Source of the DNA: an uncultured Bacilli bacterium
Lineage (GTDB): Bacteria; Bacillota_I; Bacilli_A; RF39; UBA660
NCBI GenBank assembly: GCA_947588975.1
Contig: CANQAF010000001.1
Coordinates: 1 to 47,570, forward strand
DNA length: 47,570 bases
Reading direction: 5' to 3'
The notes beneath the pieces were generated by a model. The model saw nothing but the letters and a program-made list of their open reading frames with translations, searched no databases and was not told where the DNA came from. How positions within the stretch are numbered: the stretch's first letter is position 1; every line of letters begins with the position of its first letter. Of this stretch, positions 4,392 through 46,314 are shown piece after piece. The position numbers and the translations under genes are program-made.

Positions 4392-5231
4392 TTATTTGGT
4401 ATTGTTTTGATCATAATCTTCTAAAAAGTTTTTATAGACCCCATTTTTCTTTCTTCCCAGAATACAATTTAAATTTACATTATCAAGTGCTTTAAAAATA
4501 TTATAATCAACCGATGGATTTACCTTTTTTAAATTTTGAATGAGTTGTTTTATTTCTTGACGTTTACTTATCTCTCCGTGACCACTAGAAGTATTTTCGG
4601 TAAATCGACATGCACAATTTAAGAATGTTAATTCATTTGCTTTTTGCCAAGCAATAATATCTGATTCTTTCACTAAATATAAAGGGCGAATTAATTCTAA
4701 ACCTTCAAAATGTTCACTATGCAATTTAGGCATCATAGTCTTAATTTCTGAACCATAAAACATAGATAATAAAGTAGTTTCAATCACATCATCAAAATGA
4801 TGTCCTAAAGCTATTTTATTACACCCTAATTCTTTTGCCTTATGGTATAAATATCCTCTACGCATTTTCGCACATAAATAACATGCACTTTTCAAATCAA
4901 TGTTTGAAACTGATTCAAAAATACTACTTTCAAACATTTGAATTGGTATATTTAATATTGTTGCATTTTCGAGTATCAAGTTTTTATTTTTTTCATTGTA
5001 TCCTGGATTCATGACCACATAACATGCTTCGAAAGGAACTTTTCCATGTTTCACTAATTCTTGAATACATTTTGCAAGCAAAAAGGAGTCTTTCCCACCA
5101 CTAATGCAGACCATAACTTTGTCATTTTCTTGAATGAGTTCATATTCTTGTACTGCATGTACGAATTTACTCCAAATTTCTTTTCGATACTTTTTAATAA
5201 TGCTTCTTTCAATTTCTTGATACTTTTCCAT
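4392..5231 (-). CDS. TtcA-family PP-loop ATPase (tRNA 2-thiocytidine synthase-like)
   Basis: PP-loop SGGKDS. Cys clusters CYLCAKMRRG and CACRF. Size 279 aa. Confidence 0.75.
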   Translation of the reverse strand: MEKYQEIERSIIKKYRKEIWSKFVHAVQEYELIQENDKVMVCISGGKDSFLLAKCIQELVKHGKVPFEACYVVMNPGYNEKNKNLILENATILNIPIQMFESSIFESVSNIDLKSACYLCAKMRRGYLYHKAKELGCNKIALGHHFDDVIETTLLSMFYGSEIKTMMPKLHSEHFEGLELIRPLYLVKESDIIAWQKANELTFLNCACRFTENTSSGHGEISKRQEIKQLIQNLKKVNPSVDYNIFKALDNVNLNCILGRKKNGVYKNFLEDYDQNNTK

Positions 5232-9282: not shown

Positions 9283-10512
9283 TTATTTTCGAACTAATTT
9301 TACAACACATTCAATATGATAAGTTTCAGGAAACATATCAACTGGTGTTAATTCTTTGATTTCATATACTTCTTCTAATTCTTTTAAATCCCTTGCTAAT
9401 GTAACCGGATCACAAGATACATAAATAAGACGTTTTACTTTCCATTCTTTTAAATAAGAAACAGTCTTGGGATCCAACCCACTACGTGGTGGATCTACAA
9501 CCACTACAGAATATTGATTTTCTATTTTACCAATTACCTTCGCTACATCATCACAAATAAACTCTATATTATTTACTTGATTACGTAGTTGATTCTGTTG
9601 TGCATCCTCTACTGCTTGTTGATTAATTTCAATTCCAAAAACTTTTTTACACTGTGGGCTTAAAAATAATCCAATTGTACCTGTTCCACAATATAAATCT
9701 AATACAATATCTTCCTTGTCCAAATCAGCATACGTTCTTACTAATTCATATAATTTTTCTGCTTGCTTAGTATTGACTTGAAAAAAAGAATCAGGCGAAA
9801 TGCGATAAATAAAATTTCCTATTTTCTCTTCAATATATGGATTACCGTAAATACATTCATATGTTTTATTTTTAATATATATTGTATTTACAAATGGGCG
9901 TAAAGTTTCAAGTATCTTTTTATTGTAATTGTCGGTACTTATATCAAAAATAACCATTATTTCATTAGAATATTCGCTATAGCGAATGATTACTTGAGAG
10001 CATTTGTCTAATTTTATGTTTGCAATTATATTTACCACTTGATTCATTTTTTCATTGATTAAATCACAGTGATTAATTGGCACAATATGGTTACTTCTTT
10101 TTTCATAGTAACCAATTTTATTTTCCACTTGTAAGGTAACTTTATTACGATATGAAAATGGTTGAGAAGCCACAATTGGTTTTATTAAAAATGAAATATC
10201 ATGATTCATAAATTTTTTTAAAATTTCTTTTACCTTGTCTTCCTTCCACTGTAAACTACTGTCATAATTCATATGCATAATATGACAACCACCACATAAT
10301 GTGTAATATGGGCATATAGGTCGCACACGATTACTACTTGTATGATGATAATGGCTAACTTTTGCTTCTTGTAAATTTTTCTTTTCCTTTAAAATTTGAA
10401 TTTCTACTTCTTCACCAGGTAAGGCATTTTCCACAAAAATTACTTTTCCGTTCGCTCTTATAATACCTCTTCCTTGGTGATCCAATTTTTCTATTGTAAA
10501 AATTTGCGACAT
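9283..10512 (-). CDS. rlmD: 23S rRNA (uracil-C5)-methyltransferase, RumA/RlmD (TrmA) family
   Basis: TRAM-like N-terminus. Fe-S Cys cluster CPYYTLCGGC. SAM motif VLDLYCGTGTIGL. DPPRSG. Catalytic YVSCDP. Start set to ATG 10512 (MSQIFTIEK), preceded by SD GGTGA. An extended -10 (TGtTATAAT, 10529-10534) lies downstream of the ORF-track TTG start at 10545. Confidence 0.85.
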   Translation of the reverse strand: MSQIFTIEKLDHQGRGIIRANGKVIFVENALPGEEVEIQILKEKKNLQEAKVSHYHHTSSNRVRPICPYYTLCGGCHIMHMNYDSSLQWKEDKVKEILKKFMNHDISFLIKPIVASQPFSYRNKVTLQVENKIGYYEKRSNHIVPINHCDLINEKMNQVVNIIANIKLDKCSQVIIRYSEYSNEIMVIFDISTDNYNKKILETLRPFVNTIYIKNKTYECIYGNPYIEEKIGNFIYRISPDSFFQVNTKQAEKLYELVRTYADLDKEDIVLDLYCGTGTIGLFLSPQCKKVFGIEINQQAVEDAQQNQLRNQVNNIEFICDDVAKVIGKIENQYSVVVVDPPRSGLDPKTVSYLKEWKVKRLIYVSCDPVTLARDLKELEEVYEIKELTPVDMFPETYHIECVVKLVRK

Positions 10513-10895: not shown

Positions 10896-12350
10896 ATGTT
10901 AGAGAATATAGAACAAATAGTTCAAAGAATAAAACAAGAGACCAATGAGTTAGATGATATTATCTATAGAGAAAAAGTCATTAAAAAGAAAAAGGTCTAC
11001 ATTATATATAACGAACCACTGACTTCTAGTGATAAAATCAGTGATTTTATTGTGCGTAGTTTAAATCACATTGAACAAGAAAAATTCTCGGTAAATACTT
11101 TATTTCATATCATTGAAAATGATATTAGTAACTTTAAAGTGAAAAAAGTTAATACTTATAAAGATATTTGCTTTTATCTACACAAAGGATTTACCATAAT
11201 ACTTGTTGAAGGATGTAGTGAAGCGCTTGCTTTAGAAACTAGAGCTAATATTTCACGAGGCATTACTGCACCAGATACAGAAAGTACAGTTCGCGGTGCA
11301 AAAGATTCTTTCGTAGAAGATTACCAAATTAATATAGGACTTATCAAAAAAAGAATAAAAACAAATAATTTGTGGATAAAAAATTTATCCATAGGTAAAT
11401 ATACTGCAACCCAAATTGGAGTATTATCTATTCATGGTATTGTCAAAGAAGAACTTATCAATCAAGTAATGGAGCAATTAAACAAAATTGATATTTATGG
11501 AATCATTGATAGTGGAATGATTAAAAATCTCATCGAAAAAGAAACAAAATCCTTATTTCCTACTGTTGTTACTACAGAAAGACCTGATGTAGTATCAAAA
11601 GCACTACTAGAAGGTAAGGTTGCAATTGTAGTTGATAATAGTCCTTATGTTTTAATAATACCAGCTGTGCTGAATGATTTTTTTAAAACAATGGAAGATA
11701 TTTATGGAAAAGGCTCCAATGTTACATTTACACGTATTGTAAAATTTTTAGCATTCATCATTGCATTATTTACTCCTGCAGTATATATTGCACTTATTAC
11801 TTATAATCAGGAAATGATTCCAACAGATTTACTCGCTAATTTTGCAACGCAAAGAGATGGGGTACCTTTCCCTGCCTTTTTTGAAGGATTTATGATGATT
11901 TTATCTTTTGAAATTTTAAGAGAAAGTGATTTACGTGTTCCAAGCTTCAGCGGAAGTGCTTTATCCATTGTAGGTGCCCTGATTTTAGGAGAAGCAGCAG
12001 TCAATGCTGGAATTGTATCTCCTATTATGATTATTGTCATTGCTATTACTGCCATCAGTTCACTGCCATTTACAGAATATGAACTGATAAATGCCTTAAG
12101 GTGGTATCGAATTATATTTATGCTAGGAGCTGCTTTTTTAGGGATTGTTGGTGTTTTTGCAGTTACAATTTTCTTTATCATTCGAATGTGTGCATTAGAG
12201 TCTTTTGGAAAACCGTACTTAATGCCTTTTGCACCGACGATTGTTTCATCCTTAAAAAATAGTGTTGTTAAATTCCCATTAAAAGATTTATATAAACGTC
12301 AACCTTATCTATCAAATAATCGCATAAAAGAAAGGAGTAAACAAAAATGA
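10896..12350 (+). CDS. Spore germination protein, GerA/GerKA (A subunit) family
   Basis: 484 aa with TTERPDVVSKALLEGKVAIVVDNSPYVLIIPAVLNDFF and C-terminal TM helices. SD GGTGAT. A possible forespore-type -10 (CATACTA, 10867-10873) lies upstream; this is low confidence. Confidence 0.9.
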   Translation: MLENIEQIVQRIKQETNELDDIIYREKVIKKKKVYIIYNEPLTSSDKISDFIVRSLNHIEQEKFSVNTLFHIIENDISNFKVKKVNTYKDICFYLHKGFTIILVEGCSEALALETRANISRGITAPDTESTVRGAKDSFVEDYQINIGLIKKRIKTNNLWIKNLSIGKYTATQIGVLSIHGIVKEELINQVMEQLNKIDIYGIIDSGMIKNLIEKETKSLFPTVVTTERPDVVSKALLEGKVAIVVDNSPYVLIIPAVLNDFFKTMEDIYGKGSNVTFTRIVKFLAFIIALFTPAVYIALITYNQEMIPTDLLANFATQRDGVPFPAFFEGFMMILSFEILRESDLRVPSFSGSALSIVGALILGEAAVNAGIVSPIMIIVIAITAISSLPFTEYELINALRWYRIIFMLGAAFLGIVGVFAVTIFFIIRMCALESFGKPYLMPFAPTIVSSLKNSVVKFPLKDLYKRQPYLSNNRIKERSKQK

Positions 12351-16281: not shown

Positions 16282-17001
16282 CTATAAATTTGCTTCATTA
16301 TACAATTTCTTGATTTCTTTTGGATTCAACATCCTGTATTCCCCTGATTTTAATCCAGATAAATTAAGGAAAGAAATTTGTTCTCTTTTTAATTTCAATA
16401 CGGTAAGCCCAATTGTTTCAAACATTTTTTTTACTTGATGATTTCTACCTTCATGTATGACAAGTTCTACAATAGAAGTGTTTGTTTTTTTATCATATCT
16501 TTTGATTCTCACTTGCGACTTTGCAGTCATTTTACCATCTATTAGAACACCCTGTTGTAACTTTAAAAGTTGATCTTTTGAAATAAAACCATTGACTTTT
16601 GCAATATAACGTTTATCAATTTTATTTTTTGGATGCATCATTGCATTCGCAAATATTCCATCATTCGTTAATAACAAAATTCCAGTTGTATCATAATCTA
16701 ATCTTCCAACAGGATAAATACGAATATTAGTATCAATCAAATCAACTACAGTTTTTCTATGTTTATCGTCACTTGTCGTAGTAACTACACCACGGGGTTT
16801 ATATAATAAATAATATACTTTTTGTTCCTCTTTTGTTAATATCTCGCCATCAATTTCGATCATATCGTTTACACTTACTTTAGTGCCTAATTCCGATACG
16901 GTAACTCCGTTCACTTTTACATGACCCGTACGAATTAATTCTTCTGCTTTACGACGAGAGGTATATCCACTTTCAGCAATAATTTTTTGTAATCTTTCCA
17001 T
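16282..17001 (-). CDS. rluB: Pseudouridine synthase, RsuA/RluB family (S4 domain plus catalytic domain)
   Basis: N-terminal S4 domain (MERLQKIIAESGYTSRRKAEELI). Catalytic motif GRLDYDTTGILLLTNDG. Confidence 0.85.
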   Translation of the reverse strand: MERLQKIIAESGYTSRRKAEELIRTGHVKVNGVTVSELGTKVSVNDMIEIDGEILTKEEQKVYYLLYKPRGVVTTTSDDKHRKTVVDLIDTNIRIYPVGRLDYDTTGILLLTNDGIFANAMMHPKNKIDKRYIAKVNGFISKDQLLKLQQGVLIDGKMTAKSQVRIKRYDKKTNTSIVELVIHEGRNHQVKKMFETIGLTVLKLKREQISFLNLSGLKSGEYRMLNPKEIKKLYNEANL

Positions 17002-17094
17002 ACAAATTCACCTGAATTTATTATACAAAATTCATATCATAAATGCAATGAATGATTGCATTATTATACACTGATCGTTTTTCTATATTTTTAT

Positions 17095-17934
17095 TTACGC
17101 AACCATAAATTTTTCCATTGTTGCCGTAATATTTTCTGCTCCGTATCCTCTTAATCGAATTCTAAAATATACTTCTTTCCCCGCATAACCTGATAAGTCA
17201 ATCTCAGTATTAAAGTTACTAGAACCTGTATAAAATTGGTATAGTTGTGTCCATGTTGTTCCATCATTATCAGATATATCTACATATACTCCGTATGTTT
17301 TATTCGTTACATTTGCGTATGGTGTTCCCCAAAATAAGTATCCCTCAAAATATAATTTCATACCATTACGAATTGCCTGTGATTTATTATATTTAAATTC
17401 ACTGAAAGCGCCATCGCTTTTTCCAGTATTTGTAAATTGAAAAGTGCCATTTTCAGTCAAAATAGAACCATTTGCATTTTTCCCACTATTACCTGCGGTA
17501 TTTTTAATTTCCCAATCGGAAGGAGATGTCGATAACAAATCTAAACCTTTTAAACCTACTTTTGTCCAACAAACCCATGCTTGATTTTCACTATCATATA
17601 TCTCAATACAATCTGTTTCTGCATTATAGCGAATATTCCCTCCATCAGTTCCTCCTGCTCCTCCTTGATAAAATTGTGCAATCGTTCCTGTAATCGTTCC
17701 ATCTGCTATTTGGCTGATATCTGTTCCTCCAAGAAGTTGCTCTATATTATTTACTTTTTTCAGTAATTCTTCCACTACTGTATTTAGTTGTAGAGCTGAT
17801 ACAGTTTCTTGTTTCATGGTATCTAATATCGTTTTTTTATTCTGCAAATTATTTAAAATTCCTACCATCAGTGCTAAAAACAATAATAACAACGTATATA
17901 ATATTGTGCTAGTAGCAAACCCTTTTTTCTTCAT
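17095..17934 (-). CDS. Pilin-like (class III signal-like N-terminus, no Glu5) surface protein with a C-terminal beta-sandwich, lectin-like domain
   Basis: Start set to ATG 17934 (MKKKGFATSTILYTLLLLFLALMVGIL), 7 nt after SD AAAGGAG. The C-terminus (...IDLSGYAGKEVYFRIRLRGYG...) resembles carbohydrate-binding or choice-of-anchor-type jelly-roll domains. The ORF-track extension to 17997 reads through the leader. Confidence 0.7.
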   Translation of the reverse strand: MKKKGFATSTILYTLLLLFLALMVGILNNLQNKKTILDTMKQETVSALQLNTVVEELLKKVNNIEQLLGGTDISQIADGTITGTIAQFYQGGAGGTDGGNIRYNAETDCIEIYDSENQAWVCWTKVGLKGLDLLSTSPSDWEIKNTAGNSGKNANGSILTENGTFQFTNTGKSDGAFSEFKYNKSQAIRNGMKLYFEGYLFWGTPYANVTNKTYGVYVDISDNDGTTWTQLYQFYTGSSNFNTEIDLSGYAGKEVYFRIRLRGYGAENITATMEKFMVA

Positions 17935-17951
17935 ATTCTTCACTCCTTTAG

Positions 17952-18053
17952 ACAATAAAAAAGAGGGTATTACCCCCCCCCCGTTTGCAAAAAGCATACT
18001 TAATATTTTCTGCTCATCACAAACTATTCTATGATTTATTTGACAATATTATA
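17952..18053 (-). promoter_or_regulatory. Conserved promoter-leader element, copy 1 (TATAAT, stem-loop, G10 terminator-like hairpin)
   Basis: Minus sense: TATAAT (18053-18048). Stem GUUUGUGA...UUGCAAAC encloses AGCA-N14-UGCU. Then G10 (17982-17973), UAAUA, CCCUC (17967-17963) and U6 (17962-17957). 80 of 93 aligned positions match 30731-30822. Confidence 0.6.
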
Positions 18054-18090
18054 GTATCATATTTCATCTATAATGTCCATATAAAATATA

Positions 18091-29465: not shown

Positions 29466-30638
29466 TCAATATTGTAACTCAAGACTTTTGATAAGAAAAT
29501 ATGTACTATAATTATAATATCCTTGGTATTCTATATAAATATAATACTTGTCTTGTCTAGAGGATAAATCTAATTCCAAAGTTTGTTCTTTTTCGTTAAA
29601 ACCTTCATAACGGTCTCCATATACTTCGTTATTTTGATTTGCACTTGATCCTAATTGTGCACCATTATTATTTTCGTAAAACCCGCAAGAACCACAAGCT
29701 GAATTCCATTGATTTGATCCATTACTAGTCGACTTAGATATTTTTAGAGAAACAGCCAGACTATTTAGACTTGTTTGATATGTGAGTATTAATTTACTAT
29801 ATCCAGTTGTATCAATCATTGCATTGGTTCGAATAATACCCATATGATTTGGTGTAGCTGAATGTATAGCACAATTCATTCGATAGCCACTTTCACTAGA
29901 AGAAAATGAAATTCCACCACCTTTATAATGTGTTGTAAAATTTGAAAAAAGGTTATATTGATTATTTTTGTACAAATAAGTGGAGAATGCACTCTTTTCT
30001 ATTGTAAAATCTTGAGAACTTACTTTTCCATATTTATCTTTTACCCATGCTGTATAGTCTCCCGCTTCTGTTGCTTCTTTAGCTTCCCATTCTGCTGTCG
30101 TTTCTTTCAACCCATCTACCGGAGTCCATTCCTTAACTTCTTCTTCCTTTTTTGTAACTGCATATCCAATTACACCAACCTCACTTTTTAATGTGATAGA
30201 AGCTTTTTTCCCTTCTACATTTACTGATACTTCAGGTAACTCTACAGTACTTTCACATGTAACTGCTTGTGGATCTACTAATGAATATTCTCCTTCTTCA
30301 TATTCATTAACAAGTACTTTCACGACTTTGTTAAGAGGAATATTTTTTCCTGTTGACAAATCTTGAAGAGGATTTTTTAGTTTTCCAACATTTACTAATG
30401 ATTCAAGAGAAATACAATAAGTTTCCCCTGCAACCATTGGGTACATACTTTGTCTTTCCTTAATATATAATTCAGTTGCGTCATATATTAATTGCATTGA
30501 TGCTTCGCTAATATTATCCTTTTGTGACTGAAGTTGATTTAAAATGGATGGTAAAATAATAATTGTTAATAATGCAATAATCAGTACTACCGCAATCATT
30601 TCTGTTAATGTAAAACCTTTTTGTTTCATTTGGTTCAT
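29466..30638 (-). CDS. Type IV pilin/pseudopilin-like protein with Ig-like and C-terminal beta-sandwich extension
   Basis: Canonical class III signal MNQMKQKG/FTLTEMIAVVLIIALLTIIILPS (Gly-1, Phe+1, Glu+5). Start at ATG 30638, 7 nt after SD GGAGTG. About 390 aa, far larger than a structural pilin. Confidence 0.8.
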   Translation of the reverse strand: MNQMKQKGFTLTEMIAVVLIIALLTIIILPSILNQLQSQKDNISEASMQLIYDATELYIKERQSMYPMVAGETYCISLESLVNVGKLKNPLQDLSTGKNIPLNKVVKVLVNEYEEGEYSLVDPQAVTCESTVELPEVSVNVEGKKASITLKSEVGVIGYAVTKKEEEVKEWTPVDGLKETTAEWEAKEATEAGDYTAWVKDKYGKVSSQDFTIEKSAFSTYLYKNNQYNLFSNFTTHYKGGGISFSSSESGYRMNCAIHSATPNHMGIIRTNAMIDTTGYSKLILTYQTSLNSLAVSLKISKSTSNGSNQWNSACGSCGFYENNNGAQLGSSANQNNEVYGDRYEGFNEKEQTLELDLSSRQDKYYIYIEYQGYYNYSTYFLIKSLELQY

Positions 30639-30730
30639 CAAGATCACTCCTACTTCTATTTTGACATTTTTATTCTTATTTTATTCTTATATACACCATT
30701 AGTGTACTATACTTTATTTCTTTTTTCAAT

Positions 30731-30857
30731 ACAATAAAAAGAGGGGATTACCCCCCCCCCGTTTGCATATAGCATGCTTGATATTTTCTGCCACTTACAA
30801 ACTATTTTATGATTTTATTGACATATTGATTATAACAAAAAGAAATCTTGAATTCAA
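30731..30857 (-). promoter_or_regulatory. Conserved promoter-leader element, copy 2
   Basis: Minus sense: TTGAAT (30857-30852), 17 nt, TATAAT (30834-30829). Stem GUUUGUA...UAUGCAAAC encloses GGCA-N14-UGCU. Then G10 (30760-30751), UAAU, CCCCUC (30746-30741) and U5 (30740-30736). A further approximately 85 nt separates it from the SD. Confidence 0.65.
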
Positions 30858-31792
30858 GATTCTTCTGTTTCTTTTATGATATAAATTGGTCTATGCTTTG
30901 TTTCCAAATATGCTTTTGATAAATATTGGCCCATAATTCCAATACAAAATAATTGAACCCCACTGACAAAGAAAATAATGCATACCAGTGATGGCCAACC
31001 TACCGTTGGATCTCCAACGGTAAGAGTTTTAATAATAATTGCAATAATTGCGACAAATGATATTAAACAAAATACAATACCAATTATTCCTGCAAGTATC
31101 AAAGGTACTGTAGAAAAAGCCGTAATACCATCTAAAGCGTAAAGAAATAATTTCCAAAAGGACCACTTTGTTTCTCCAGCTACTCTTTTGACATTTTCAT
31201 ATTCAATCCATTTGGTATCAAAACCAACAAAGCTAAATAAACCTTTTGAATAACGATTATATTCTTTTAAAGATAAAATAGCATCCACTACTTGGCGTTT
31301 CATTAAGCGATAATCCCTTGCACCATCTACCATTTCCACTTTAGACATACGGTTAATTAATTTATAAAAGCATCTAGCAAAAAAACTACGAATCGGAGGT
31401 TCTCCTTTACGTGTCACACGTCTTGTGCCTACCATATCATATCCCTCATTGATAATGGTATTATACATTTCTATTAATAATGCAGGAGGGTCTTGTAAAT
31501 CTGCATCCATTATTGTTACATAATCGCCTTTTGCATATTCTAATCCTGCATACATAGCAGCTTCTTTTCCAAAATTTCTAGAAAAAGAAATATAACGAAC
31601 TCTCTTATCTTTTTGACTGAAGTCTTTTATCATTTTCAATGTTTGATCTTTTGAACCATCATTTACAAATAAAAATTCAAAATTCACATTTTTCATTTGC
31701 TCAGCAATTTTTATAATCTCTTCATAAAAATAAGAAATTGATTCTTGTTCATTATAGCAAGGGACCACTACTGTCAATAAATCTTTTTTCAT
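30854..31792 (-). CDS. GT2 polyprenyl-phosphate glycosyltransferase (GtrB/CsbB/ArnC-like)
   Basis: VVPCYNE, NDGSKD, DADLQDPP, plus two C-terminal TM helices. ATGA overlap with the upstream gene. Confidence 0.85.
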   Translation of the reverse strand: MKKDLLTVVVPCYNEQESISYFYEEIIKIAEQMKNVNFEFLFVNDGSKDQTLKMIKDFSQKDKRVRYISFSRNFGKEAAMYAGLEYAKGDYVTIMDADLQDPPALLIEMYNTIINEGYDMVGTRRVTRKGEPPIRSFFARCFYKLINRMSKVEMVDGARDYRLMKRQVVDAILSLKEYNRYSKGLFSFVGFDTKWIEYENVKRVAGETKWSFWKLFLYALDGITAFSTVPLILAGIIGIVFCLISFVAIIAIIIKTLTVGDPTVGWPSLVCIIFFVSGVQLFCIGIMGQYLSKAYLETKHRPIYIIKETEES

Positions 31793-46154: not shown

Positions 46155-46231
46155 TGGTCGGGAAAACAGGATTTGAACCTGCAACCCCTTGGTCCCAAAC
46201 CAAGTGCTCTACCAAGTTGAGCCATTTCCCG
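46155..46231 (-). tRNA. tRNA-Pro (anticodon UGG), CCA encoded
   Basis: Hand-folded 77 nt: CGGGAAA/TTTCCCG acceptor, GCTC/GAGC D-stem, CTTGG-TTTGGGA-CCAAG anticodon arm, GCAGG-TTCAAAT-CCTGT T-arm, ACCA end. Confidence 0.9.
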
Positions 46232-46237
46232 ATATTA

Positions 46238-46314
46238 TGGTGCGCTCGAAGGGATTCGAACCCCTGACCTTTTGGTTCGTAGCCAAACACTCTATCCAGC
46301 TGAGCTACGAGCGC
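46238..46314 (-). tRNA. tRNA-Arg (anticodon ACG), CCA encoded
   Basis: Hand-folded 77 nt: GCGCTCG/CGAGCGC acceptor, TTTGG-CTACGAA-CCAAA anticodon arm, AGGGG-TTCGAAT-CCCTT T-arm, ACCA end. Confidence 0.9.

Follow-up and report, generated by a model that had tools for sequence, protein, structure and literature searches.

A conserved leader with a poly-G terminator arm upstream of type IV pilin-like genes in uncultured gut Bacilli: a candidate transcription attenuator

A stretch of 47,570 nucleotides from an uncultured Bacilli bacterium (GTDB lineage Bacteria; Bacillota_I; Bacilli_A; RF39; UBA660), which comprises positions 1 to 47,570 of the forward strand of contig CANQAF010000001.1 (NCBI GenBank assembly GCA_947588975.1) and is called the window below, carries two copies of a noncoding element of about 93 nt, each in front of a pilin-like gene. 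Copy A lies at 18044-17952 and copy B at 30822-30731, both on the minus strand. The element is proposed to be a transcribed 5′ leader that serves as a transcription attenuator for dispersed type IV pilin-like genes, with predicted termination and read-through; this reading is given a probability of roughly 0.45. Pattern scans, together with a covariance model, turned up about 20 intact copies in contigs of rabbit- and human-gut metagenomes and in metagenome-assembled genomes (MAGs) labelled "uncultured Bacilli". They are best read as a new leader/attenuator family, in which the use made of a G homopolymer is unusual and possibly novel. All of the evidence is computational, and its source is metagenome assemblies of a narrow, uncultured clade.

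The two leaders in the window

Conservation and fold of copies A and B were examined by global alignment, folding, and promoter and terminator scans. An initial annotation of the window, made by eye, had counted 80 of 93 positions identical with one gap; the two leaders stood up to realignment, with 82 identities in 94 columns. The adjacent 93 nt gave 58 identities in 101 columns upstream and 53 in 100 downstream, and random 93-mer pairs drawn from the window share 52 identities on average and 62 at most. As the flanks are at the level of random pairs, conservation ends abruptly at the limits of the leader. With up to three mismatches permitted, exactly two sites in the window match the 20-mer GCAAACGGGGGGGGGGTAAT and exactly two match the 26-mer AATAGTTTGTNNNNNGCAGAAAATAT (expected, 0), and the only runs of eight or more G within its 47.6 kb are those of copies A and B.

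The architecture drawn in the initial annotation was reproduced by folding. In both copies an outer stem GUUUGU../..GCAAAC surrounds a GCA/UGC hairpin with a 14-nt loop, and directly 3′ of the hairpin follow G10, a loop of 4-5 nt, CCC(C)UC and a U-run; the folding z-scores of the two copies are -2.2 and -3.95. The element had also been said to look like an intrinsic terminator, and both sites were indeed flagged as predicted terminators, with 0.0-0.1 expected in shuffles. The TATAAT -10 reported for both copies was present on promoter scanning: copy B has TTGAAT-17-TATAAT with a TG, and copy A a weaker TGGACA-17-TACTAT that overlaps TATAAT. Hairpin folding of the sense and antisense strands gave -11.2 and -3.9 kcal/mol for copy A and -12.0 and -3.4 kcal/mol for copy B. 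The parts of the two copies, with gene lengths in amino acids (aa), are as follows.

18048..18079, minus strand: promoter of copy A, with a -35-like TGGACA (18079-18074), weaker than the -35 of the other copies, and an overlapping -10 TACTAT/TATAAT (18056-18048)
18021..18037, minus strand: invariant box of copy A, AAATCATAGAATAGTTT, from clade 11-mer counts and column conservation
17983..18024, minus strand: hairpin P1 of copy A, GUUUGUGA-U-GAGCA, 14-nt loop, UGCUU-U-UUGCAAAC, from folding and pair counts
17973..17982, minus strand: G10 tract of copy A, 5′ arm of the predicted terminator hairpin, from sequence
17957..17972, minus strand: predicted terminator loop UAAUA, 3′ arm CCCUC and U6 tract of copy A, from the scan (four registers versus 0.0 expected) and the fold
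17095..17949, minus strand: gene A (279 aa; ATG at 17934) and its Shine-Dalgarno sequence AAAGGAG (17949-17943), 8 nt past the U-tract
30829..30862, minus strand: upstream terminator hairpin of copy B, GAATCTTGAATTCAAGATTTC (30862-30842), with the -35 TTGAAT (30857-30852) in its loop, and the -10 TATAAT (30834-30829)
30799..30815, minus strand: invariant box of copy B, AAATCATAAAATAGTTT, from clade 11-mer counts and column conservation
30761..30802, minus strand: hairpin P1 of copy B, GUUUGUA-A-GUGGCA, 14-nt loop, UGCUAU-A-UGCAAAC, from folding
30736..30760, minus strand: G10 tract of copy B (30760-30751), loop UAAU, arm CCCCUC and U5, from the terminator scan
30688..30729, minus strand: spacer of copy B, with a promoter-like TTGAAA-17-TACACT (30729-30701) that overlaps the palindrome TATAGTACACTAATGGTGTATATA (30711-30688)
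29466..30638, minus strand: gene B, a 390-aa prepilin-type protein (MNQMKQKGFTLTEMIAV...), from PF07963 and TIGR02532

The box of copy A contains a -10-like TAGAAT about 12-17 nt past the predicted start, and its final GTTT doubles as the hairpin base. The interval after the terminator of this copy is too short for a second promoter, so gene A would have to be transcribed by read-through. Two other interpretations of the same segment were discarded. A 300-aa open reading frame (ORF; 17095-17997), in which gene A is extended to an ATG at 17997 through G10 and the terminator, is probably an artefact, and its frame is not conserved in other copies; a promoter inside TTGCAA-AC-G10-TAATAC was ruled out by inspection, the spacer being only 12 nt.

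No known RNA family accounts for the leader. With Rfam 15 at gathering thresholds the whole window yielded two tRNAs only (adjacent tRNA genes are located at 46158-46314, minus strand), and the best scores from permissive scans, run on copies A and B and on a divergent copy from contig L027, were 12-21 bits against thresholds of 37-102. The models for the cyclic di-GMP (c-di-GMP) riboswitches I and II had no match even at E<=10, and the earlier failure to match the element to familiar riboswitch classes, these two included, agrees with the Rfam result for the three copies at permissive thresholds. Likenesses to integron attC sites, ops, the ComK box, the cin-box and sigma-H promoters were dismissed by eye because defining positions mismatch. 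Literature searches found no described pilin leader motif.

A family of dispersed copies

A third copy was reached through homologues of protein B on a metagenome contig (L005), and a scan of GTDB species genomes returned a syntenic copy in the rabbit-gut MAG 'uncultured Bacilli bacterium Lapin-026_bin120' (L008). The pattern used in the latter scan, which required GCAGAAAAT and CAAACG6, was too strict and gave one relevant genome (L008) and nine chance hits; it misses most hairpin variants, so the taxonomic spread is underestimated and is a lower bound. Five further loci, one of them from a human gut assembly, came from a scan of metagenome contigs. Viral contigs gave no match to the leader.

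A covariance model, proposed in the initial annotation as a check, was built from seven copies and run on DNA fetched around homologues of proteins A and B. It recovered every copy in that DNA: 19 hits at E<1e-7, one further intact copy cut by a contig end, and degenerate remnants. All intact copies are on the sense strand, upstream of a gene that starts MKKKGF(T/A) or of an operon that contains a pilin-like gene. The selection on the leader that had been argued from two copies is thereby borne out by about 20 intact homologues in several species, each ahead of a pilin-like gene. Seven intact copies and one remnant are found in a single MAG (GCA_947627435.1; contigs L016, L024, L026 and L027), with at least five different hairpin sequences among the seven. 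As the hairpins differ within this genome, yet the box and the G tract are invariant, the copies have not been homogenised.

Degenerate remnants were found at two loci. The remnant at L024:10612-10708 (= L025:1927-2023) has kept the box and the U-tract/ATTGTCTAAA end and has lost the G tract and the hairpin; that at L020:170-264 has kept the hairpin and G7, has no recognisable promoter, and its terminator is degraded. Neither is followed immediately by a pilin-like gene in the available sequence.

The leader-pilin genes are solitary insertions among housekeeping genes, and no pilus machinery was found near the copies in the neighbourhoods inspected. Neighbours in the window are ligA, pcrA, dacA, a pseudouridine synthase gene and a glycosyltransferase operon; those at other loci include rnf, ftsEX, prfB and ribosomal protein genes. 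In the block yutD-prfB-yitT-ftsE-ftsX the leader-pilin cassette is placed between yutD and prfB in L018 and after ftsX in L024, that is, at different intergenic positions in related genomes, which points to gain and loss or to mobility. In a human gut contig (L021:745-5492, minus strand) a G8 leader heads a three-gene unit that encodes two unassigned proteins (about 404 and 318 aa) and, last, a pilin-like protein of 742 aa in which domains are repeated; the unit is located downstream of a gene for a 580-aa P-loop (Walker-A-containing) protein.

Promoter, box and spacer

A -35/-10 pair with 17-nt spacing was present in each intact copy checked, and its sequence differs from copy to copy. In several copies, for example copy B (30842-30862, minus strand), an upstream terminator hairpin GAATCTTGnnnCAAGATTC-T6 holds the -35 of the leader promoter in its loop; a hairpin-plus-promoter module like that of copy B was seen in L016b (about 11375-11400), L026 (about 9845-9870), and L027b and L027c (L027, about 4975-5000 and 9855-9880). 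Because several copies retain this hairpin within the module, the unit as a whole resembles an insulated expression cassette.

The predicted start is followed, after some 6-11 variable nt, by the invariant box AATCATARAATAGTTT, 17 nt long, which lies within the first 25 nt or so and has R as its sole variable position. The 11-mer TCATARAATAG occurs at 21 sites in the clade loci scanned (15 sources, both strands), all of them upstream of pilin-like genes. Within the box a -10-like TARAAT is found about 12-19 nt after the predicted start, the spacing seen in sigma-dependent promoter-proximal pauses such as that of lambda PR′, and R is position 3 of this hexamer; position 3 is the least constrained position of a -10 hexamer. 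A partial dyad, AAAYYAT-ARA-ATRRTTT, can be read from the box sequence.

Two types of leader are distinguished by what follows the terminator. In the A-type, to which most copies and window copy A belong, a Shine-Dalgarno sequence stands within 10-30 nt of the U-tract (13 of 19 complete copies); so short a distance leaves no room for a further promoter, and the gene should depend on read-through. The B-type (window copy B, L005, L008 and L016a) has an 85-nt conserved spacer after the terminator, in which a second promoter-like TTGAAA-17-TACACT overlaps a near-perfect palindrome TATAGTACACTAnTAGTGTATATA, a possible operator or second hairpin.

The hairpin

The hairpin is 39-42 nt long, is closed by invariant GUUU/AAAC pairs, and folds in all 20 copies (-5.6 to -13.4 kcal/mol). 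Its interior exists in at least five sequence versions that differ in register, in bulges and in the apical loop (4-14 nt); neither the apical nor the internal loops are conserved, and the 3′ arm (UGCUAUUUGUAAAC) is better conserved than the 5′ arm. The invariant parts of the leader are outside the hairpin interior: the box, and AAAC with the G run. Column conservation falls from 0.98 in the AAAC-G tract and 0.86 in the box region to 0.71 in the interior of the hairpin and 0.39 in the loop of the terminator.

Most changes in the hairpin place G or A opposite U, or U or C opposite G, and up to five G.U pairs occur per copy. Because of these G.U pairs the sense strand is about 6 kcal/mol more stable than the antisense strand (means, -10.5 and -4.2 kcal/mol), and this asymmetry argues for a sense-strand RNA structure and not for a DNA palindrome. 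The leader is, in all likelihood, a transcribed sense-strand RNA. The initial annotation held that pairing is preserved, and in part it was right: 97.5 % of pair cells are standard, compared with 54-68 % when partners are slid by 1-3 columns, in an alignment that was fitted to the model, so that the stems are kept; covariation proper is weak, with double changes at two pairs.

The G tract and the terminator

The G tract abuts the hairpin with no spacer and ranges from G7 to G11. Among the 19 aligned copies, in consensus assemblies that hide minority lengths, G10 was counted in 13, G11 in two, G9 in two, G8 in one and G7 in one degenerate copy. A loop of 2-9 nt, CCC(C)(UC) and 5-10 U follow, an intrinsic-terminator layout that is common to all intact copies; the G-C part comprises 3-5 base pairs only, and the remaining G can form G.U pairs with the U-tract. 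Blocking of the G tract cost 5.5-14.3 kcal/mol in the 17 copies folded. G10 is identical in independent assemblies of copy A (L029) and copy B (L030) despite differing single-nucleotide polymorphisms nearby, and tract lengths at orthologous loci are G10/G10 (copy A and L023), G10/G9 (copy B and L008) and identical (L024 and L025; L027 and L028). The leader regions have 23-36 % G+C.

In 311 kb of clade DNA, both strands considered, all 22 runs of seven or more G are upstream of pilin-like genes. They are not confined to leaders. Two adjacent small pilin genes of contig L017 (161 and 165 aa, N_methyl) have a G9 (16355-16363) and a G10 (16961-16970) within the spacers of their promoters, TTGACA-17-TATACT and TTGACA-18-TATACT (loci 16340-16400 and 16945-17010), and the second has the box, as TCATAAAATAG, directly ahead of its Shine-Dalgarno sequence. 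The distance from -10 to box is 13-18 nt in the leaders and 4 nt at this small pilin gene. A homopolymer in the promoter spacer is the classic layout of phase-variable fimbrial promoters such as those of Bordetella fim and Neisseria. Gap-tolerant alignments gave CAAA..C-G(9-10)-T(T/A)ATAC and the region before the Shine-Dalgarno sequence as common to the leader and the L017 layout; these alignments are suggestive only, and the leader may be a simple promoter with a box-hairpin insertion. The G tract could be a slippage switch, a factor-binding signal common to both layouts, or a relic co-opted as a terminator arm.

The downstream genes

Proteins A and B had been described as alike in little beyond a hydrophobic N-terminus, and they have only about 37 N-terminal residues in common (BLASTP E=0.21). 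That both are pilin-like holds on family evidence for protein B, which has a prepilin N-terminal methylation domain (PF07963, E=2.6e-5; TIGR02532, 23.2 bits versus a cut-off of 16.3). Protein A has no match in Pfam or NCBIfam: its N-terminus MKKKGFATSTILYT presents KKGF and a hydrophobic helix with Thr or Ala in place of Glu5, and so departs from the class III prepilin signal (basic leader, Gly-Phe cleavage site, Glu5 and hydrophobic helix), and its C-terminus is variable. Its assignment as pilin-like is thus a putative one made by sequence alone; we take it to resemble the minor pilins that are without Glu5.

The 40-residue N-terminus of protein A is invariant in 16 relatives. In the gene A family (P0010-P0041) this near-invariant segment, MKKKGFATSAILYTMLLLFLVLLVGILNNLQNKKTILD, again without Glu5, is joined to unrelated C-terminal domains, some of them glycine-rich (PF12810). 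The genes downstream of L005, L008, L016a, L017, L018, L019, L022 and L027a/b start with KKGFTLIELL. Two paralogues of pilin B, P0002 (L001:9930-10948) and P0003 (L002:10001-10987), are 95 % and 86 % identical to about 55 % of its length, from the N-terminus, and differ in the remainder; their genes come after rpmF, have a simple TATACT promoter and lack the hairpin, the G tract and the terminator. One sample (ERZ27059787) is the source of both L001 and L030, the exact copy-B locus. Comparison of P0002 and P0003 with pilin B suggests domain shuffling among the pilin-like genes.

Predicted mode of action

If the leader is an attenuator, a sigma-A-type promoter would fire, the invariant box would be carried within the first 25 nt or so of the transcript, and the RNA would fold into the hairpin of about 40 nt closed by GUUU/AAAC. 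The G tract would then pair with CCC(C)(UC) and extend into the U-tract by G.U pairs, so that an intrinsic terminator forms. Most transcripts would end as RNAs of about 85-95 nt, and the pilin-like gene would be expressed only when RNA polymerase reads through.

Box, GUUU/AAAC and G tract are invariant at the hairpin base while the rest drifts, the pattern of a recognition site, from which we infer a trans-acting factor. Read-through would be set by such a factor at the hairpin base and not by a small-molecule aptamer. The factor might be an RNA-binding antiterminator that holds the G tract or the hairpin-terminator junction, or it might be loaded onto polymerase paused at the -10-like TARAAT in the box. 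The degeneration of the copies that have no pilin gene (L024 10612-10708 and L020) was counted in favour of an attenuator. What had been called a candidate new cis-regulatory RNA therefore keeps its novelty, as no Rfam family matches, and its sense-strand fold; it has the look of an attenuator module that depends on a factor, and not that of an aptamer that binds a ligand.

Several observations weigh against attenuation. Termination alone does not explain the keeping of ten G, and the box and G run also occur at pilin genes with neither hairpin nor terminator, so that part of the signal may act on DNA. The B-type has a possible second promoter beyond the terminator. Covariation is weak (double changes at two of 20 pairs, most changes being one-sided wobbles, in the model-fitted alignment), and no alternative antiterminator pairing was conserved in folds of the nascent RNA or in folds with the G tract blocked. 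In the neighbourhoods inspected, none of the genes linked to the copies is a candidate regulator, and termination, read-through and the factor are themselves predictions from sequence and folding. As to other pairings, the C/U arm can, by thermodynamic prediction, pair with the Shine-Dalgarno region instead, which is a generic pairing. Pairing at long range between the A-rich 5′ tail and the U-tract with the sequence beyond it was rejected as a family feature: it is strong in L019, L022, L008 and copy B, and absent or weak in copy A, L017 and the L027 class.

Alternative explanations

Phase variation would make the G tract hypermutable, with changes in its length toggling individual pilin-like genes through the leader. 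The placement of all 22 G runs of the clade DNA upstream of pilin-like genes fits this, as does the nature of the genes, since a multigene surface-protein family is the usual substrate; the two L017 tracts fill promoter spacers (17 versus 18 nt), leader tracts vary from G7 to G11, and slippage combined with attenuation has a precedent at a pilus operon (PMC3894217). The length is, however, strongly modal (G10 in 13 of 19) and constant across independent assemblies and between L024 and L025 and between L027 and L028. One G more or less leaves the predicted terminator unchanged because many registers exist; no effect of length is predicted in the leader, and phase variation is considered unlikely. 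The frame-dependent route, by a leader peptide of the Streptococcus gallolyticus pil1 type, is unsupported. Here an ORF would run from the 3′ arm of the hairpin through the G tract (Gly-Gly-Gly) and the terminator, the ribosome would melt the terminator, and tract length would set the frame. An ATG or TTG does stand 15 nt ahead of the G tract in 14 of 17 copies, the frame is open through the terminator and either stops 5-15 nt short of the pilin start, as in several A-type copies, or continues into the pilin frame, and one G fewer leads to an immediate UAA. But no Shine-Dalgarno sequence precedes the ORF (the best candidates match at 2-4 of 5 positions), its start codon lies within the paired hairpin stem, L008, L019 and L022 either lack the ORF or carry a disrupted version, and the substitutions show no codon pattern; a pyrimidine tract leaves two of the three frames open in any case, and the fusion with pilin, in 5 of 17 copies, is at about chance by estimate. 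This is the least probable of the explanations weighed here. A signal in DNA has more in its favour: the box would be the operator of a common pilin transcription factor or a sigma-dependent pause, and hairpin and terminator a constitutive damper or insulator. The 17-nt box is near-invariant beside a varying RNA structure, it is present at leaderless pilin genes and at varying distances from the -10 (4 nt; 13-18 nt), and it has the partial dyad and its variable R at position 3 of TARAAT. Against this, the box in all leaders joins the hairpin base with no spacer between them, with AAAC-G opposite, which suggests a single recognition surface at the RNA level, and a purely constitutive terminator after a good promoter would be wasteful unless regulated; a role confined to DNA appears decidedly unlikely.

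The terminated transcript of about 90 nt might itself be the product, an independent small RNA that either acts in trans with the box as seed or is a decoy for a factor that also binds this box in the 5′ untranslated regions of other pilin genes, and read-through into pilin genes would be secondary. Its layout is typical (own promoter, conserved single-stranded 5′ segment, hairpin, terminator), the B-type copies may have a separate gene promoter, and the box directly before the Shine-Dalgarno sequence of a small pilin gene makes a decoy role conceivable. We find this improbable, as position and orientation are strictly tied to the downstream gene, the Shine-Dalgarno sequence abuts the terminator in 13 of 19 complete copies, and sites complementary to the box are not enriched in the window (seven with up to two mismatches versus 6.25 expected, the two perfect ones being the leaders themselves). 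A riboswitch, in which the hairpin with or without the box would be the aptamer for a metabolite or ion that decides formation of the G/C-U terminator, would suit a leader with a terminator before functionally coherent genes, in many copies, with invariant nucleotides and outside any known family; type IV pilin genes of Clostridioides difficile are under riboswitch control (c-di-GMP-II). It is very improbable here, since apical and internal loops differ in size, sequence and register, terminator loops range from 2 to 9 nt, and a plain single hairpin is seen with no conserved junction or pseudoknot and no mutually exclusive antiterminator found. Loops that are not conserved, together with the want of an antiterminator pairing or a credible leader peptide, make the leader unlike a metabolite riboswitch. 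Passive conservation, finally, would leave the leader itself without a function: the similarity would stem only from pilin-cassette 5′ ends that were recently duplicated or underwent gene conversion. Pilin families often have constant 5′ regions, B-type copies also share the spacer and signal-peptide codons, and pilin domains are clearly reshuffled (P0002/P0003); still, the similarity of copies A and B stops exactly at the leader borders, hairpins within one genome have diverged yet pairing, box and G tract are kept, gene-less copies degenerate, and an unselected G10 should decay quickly at 23-36 % G+C. It is scarcely probable.

A broader proposal draws on both layouts of the G tract. G10 would be a signal dedicated to the pilin regulon and used in two architectures, in the promoter spacers of small, probably structural pilins and as the terminator arm before some ten large, variable pilin-like adhesin genes per genome. 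Together with the box it would form an undescribed switch, read either by slippage (stochastic switching of the attenuator gene by gene, without a leader peptide) or by a factor that binds the G tract and box, and each cell would display a different pilus-tip repertoire. This proposal is possible, if on balance doubtful.

Significance and comparison with known systems

If the leader gates transcription, its box, hairpin and G10 terminator provide a new and easily recognised regulon marker. It would cover a large, fast-evolving type IV pilin-like surface family of uncultured, spore-forming gut Bacilli of rabbits and humans, and would open a way to study how these bacteria select from their many adhesin-like pilins. 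An attenuator dependent on a protein or on slippage would then join the pilus controls of Firmicutes (c-di-GMP riboswitch and leader-peptide attenuation), in the form of a compact promoter-leader-terminator module for in vitro study. The restriction of long G tracts to sites upstream of pilin-like genes in the DNA sampled is, moreover, a lead on phase variation in a gut commensal.

In Clostridioides difficile a c-di-GMP-II riboswitch is located upstream of the type IV pilin gene pilA1. That system and the present one are alike as Firmicute 5′ leaders in which an intrinsic terminator gates a type IV pilin gene; the leader described here differs in having no multi-helix aptamer or pseudoknot and, in their place, a single variable hairpin, a linear box and G10. 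LicT/SacY ribonucleic antiterminator (RAT) sequences, the two-hairpin targets of ANTAR proteins and the LoaP leader hairpin are protein-dependent antitermination leaders of Firmicutes. They too have a hairpin adjoining a terminator, conserved nucleotides at its base and one recognition element over several leaders per genome. Unlike in these, hairpin and terminator arm here have no overlap, paired hexaloop hairpins are absent, and no cognate regulator gene was found nearby; without such overlap, stabilisation of the hairpin would not alone prevent termination. The lambdoid PR′-tR′/Q system resembles the leader in its strong promoter, early -10-like hexamer (TARAAT here), terminator within about 100 nt, and short RNA unless polymerase is modified. 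It differs in that the pause is here deduced from sequence, the box is much longer than a -10-like hexamer, and no Q-like gene or Q-binding element was identified.

For the G tract, comparison is with other loci. Homopolymers control the Bordetella fim genes (C-stretch), Neisseria promoters (poly-G/C tracts) and Mycoplasma vlp (poly-A). A long homopolymer reserved for a multigene family of surface filaments is common to these and the present clade, as is the location of the L017 tracts in the -35/-10 spacer; the leader tract, by contrast, is downstream of the start and transcribed as a terminator arm, and G10 is kept across assemblies. In Bacillus subtilis pyrG, reiterative transcription adds G residues at the 5′ end, and the resulting poly-G acts as an antiterminator that pairs with the terminator's pyrimidine arm. 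Pairing of poly-G with a C/U tract decides the fate of a leader terminator in both cases, with the opposite sign, as G10 here is templated and is the terminator's own 5′ arm.

In Streptococcus gallolyticus pil1, slippage at GCAGA repeats within the leader-peptide sequence enables the ribosome to open a terminator that would otherwise end transcription prematurely (Danne et al. 2014, PMC3894217). Both are systems of gut Firmicutes with a premature stem-loop terminator between promoter and pilus gene and a slippage-prone repeat in the leader, and heterogeneous expression is to be expected of both; here the G homopolymer is itself the terminator arm, a translated ORF is unsupported, and the genes are type IV pilin-like and do not encode sortase pilins. 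The leader is closest in its working to the leader-terminator attenuators of Firmicutes and is a member of none of the systems compared.

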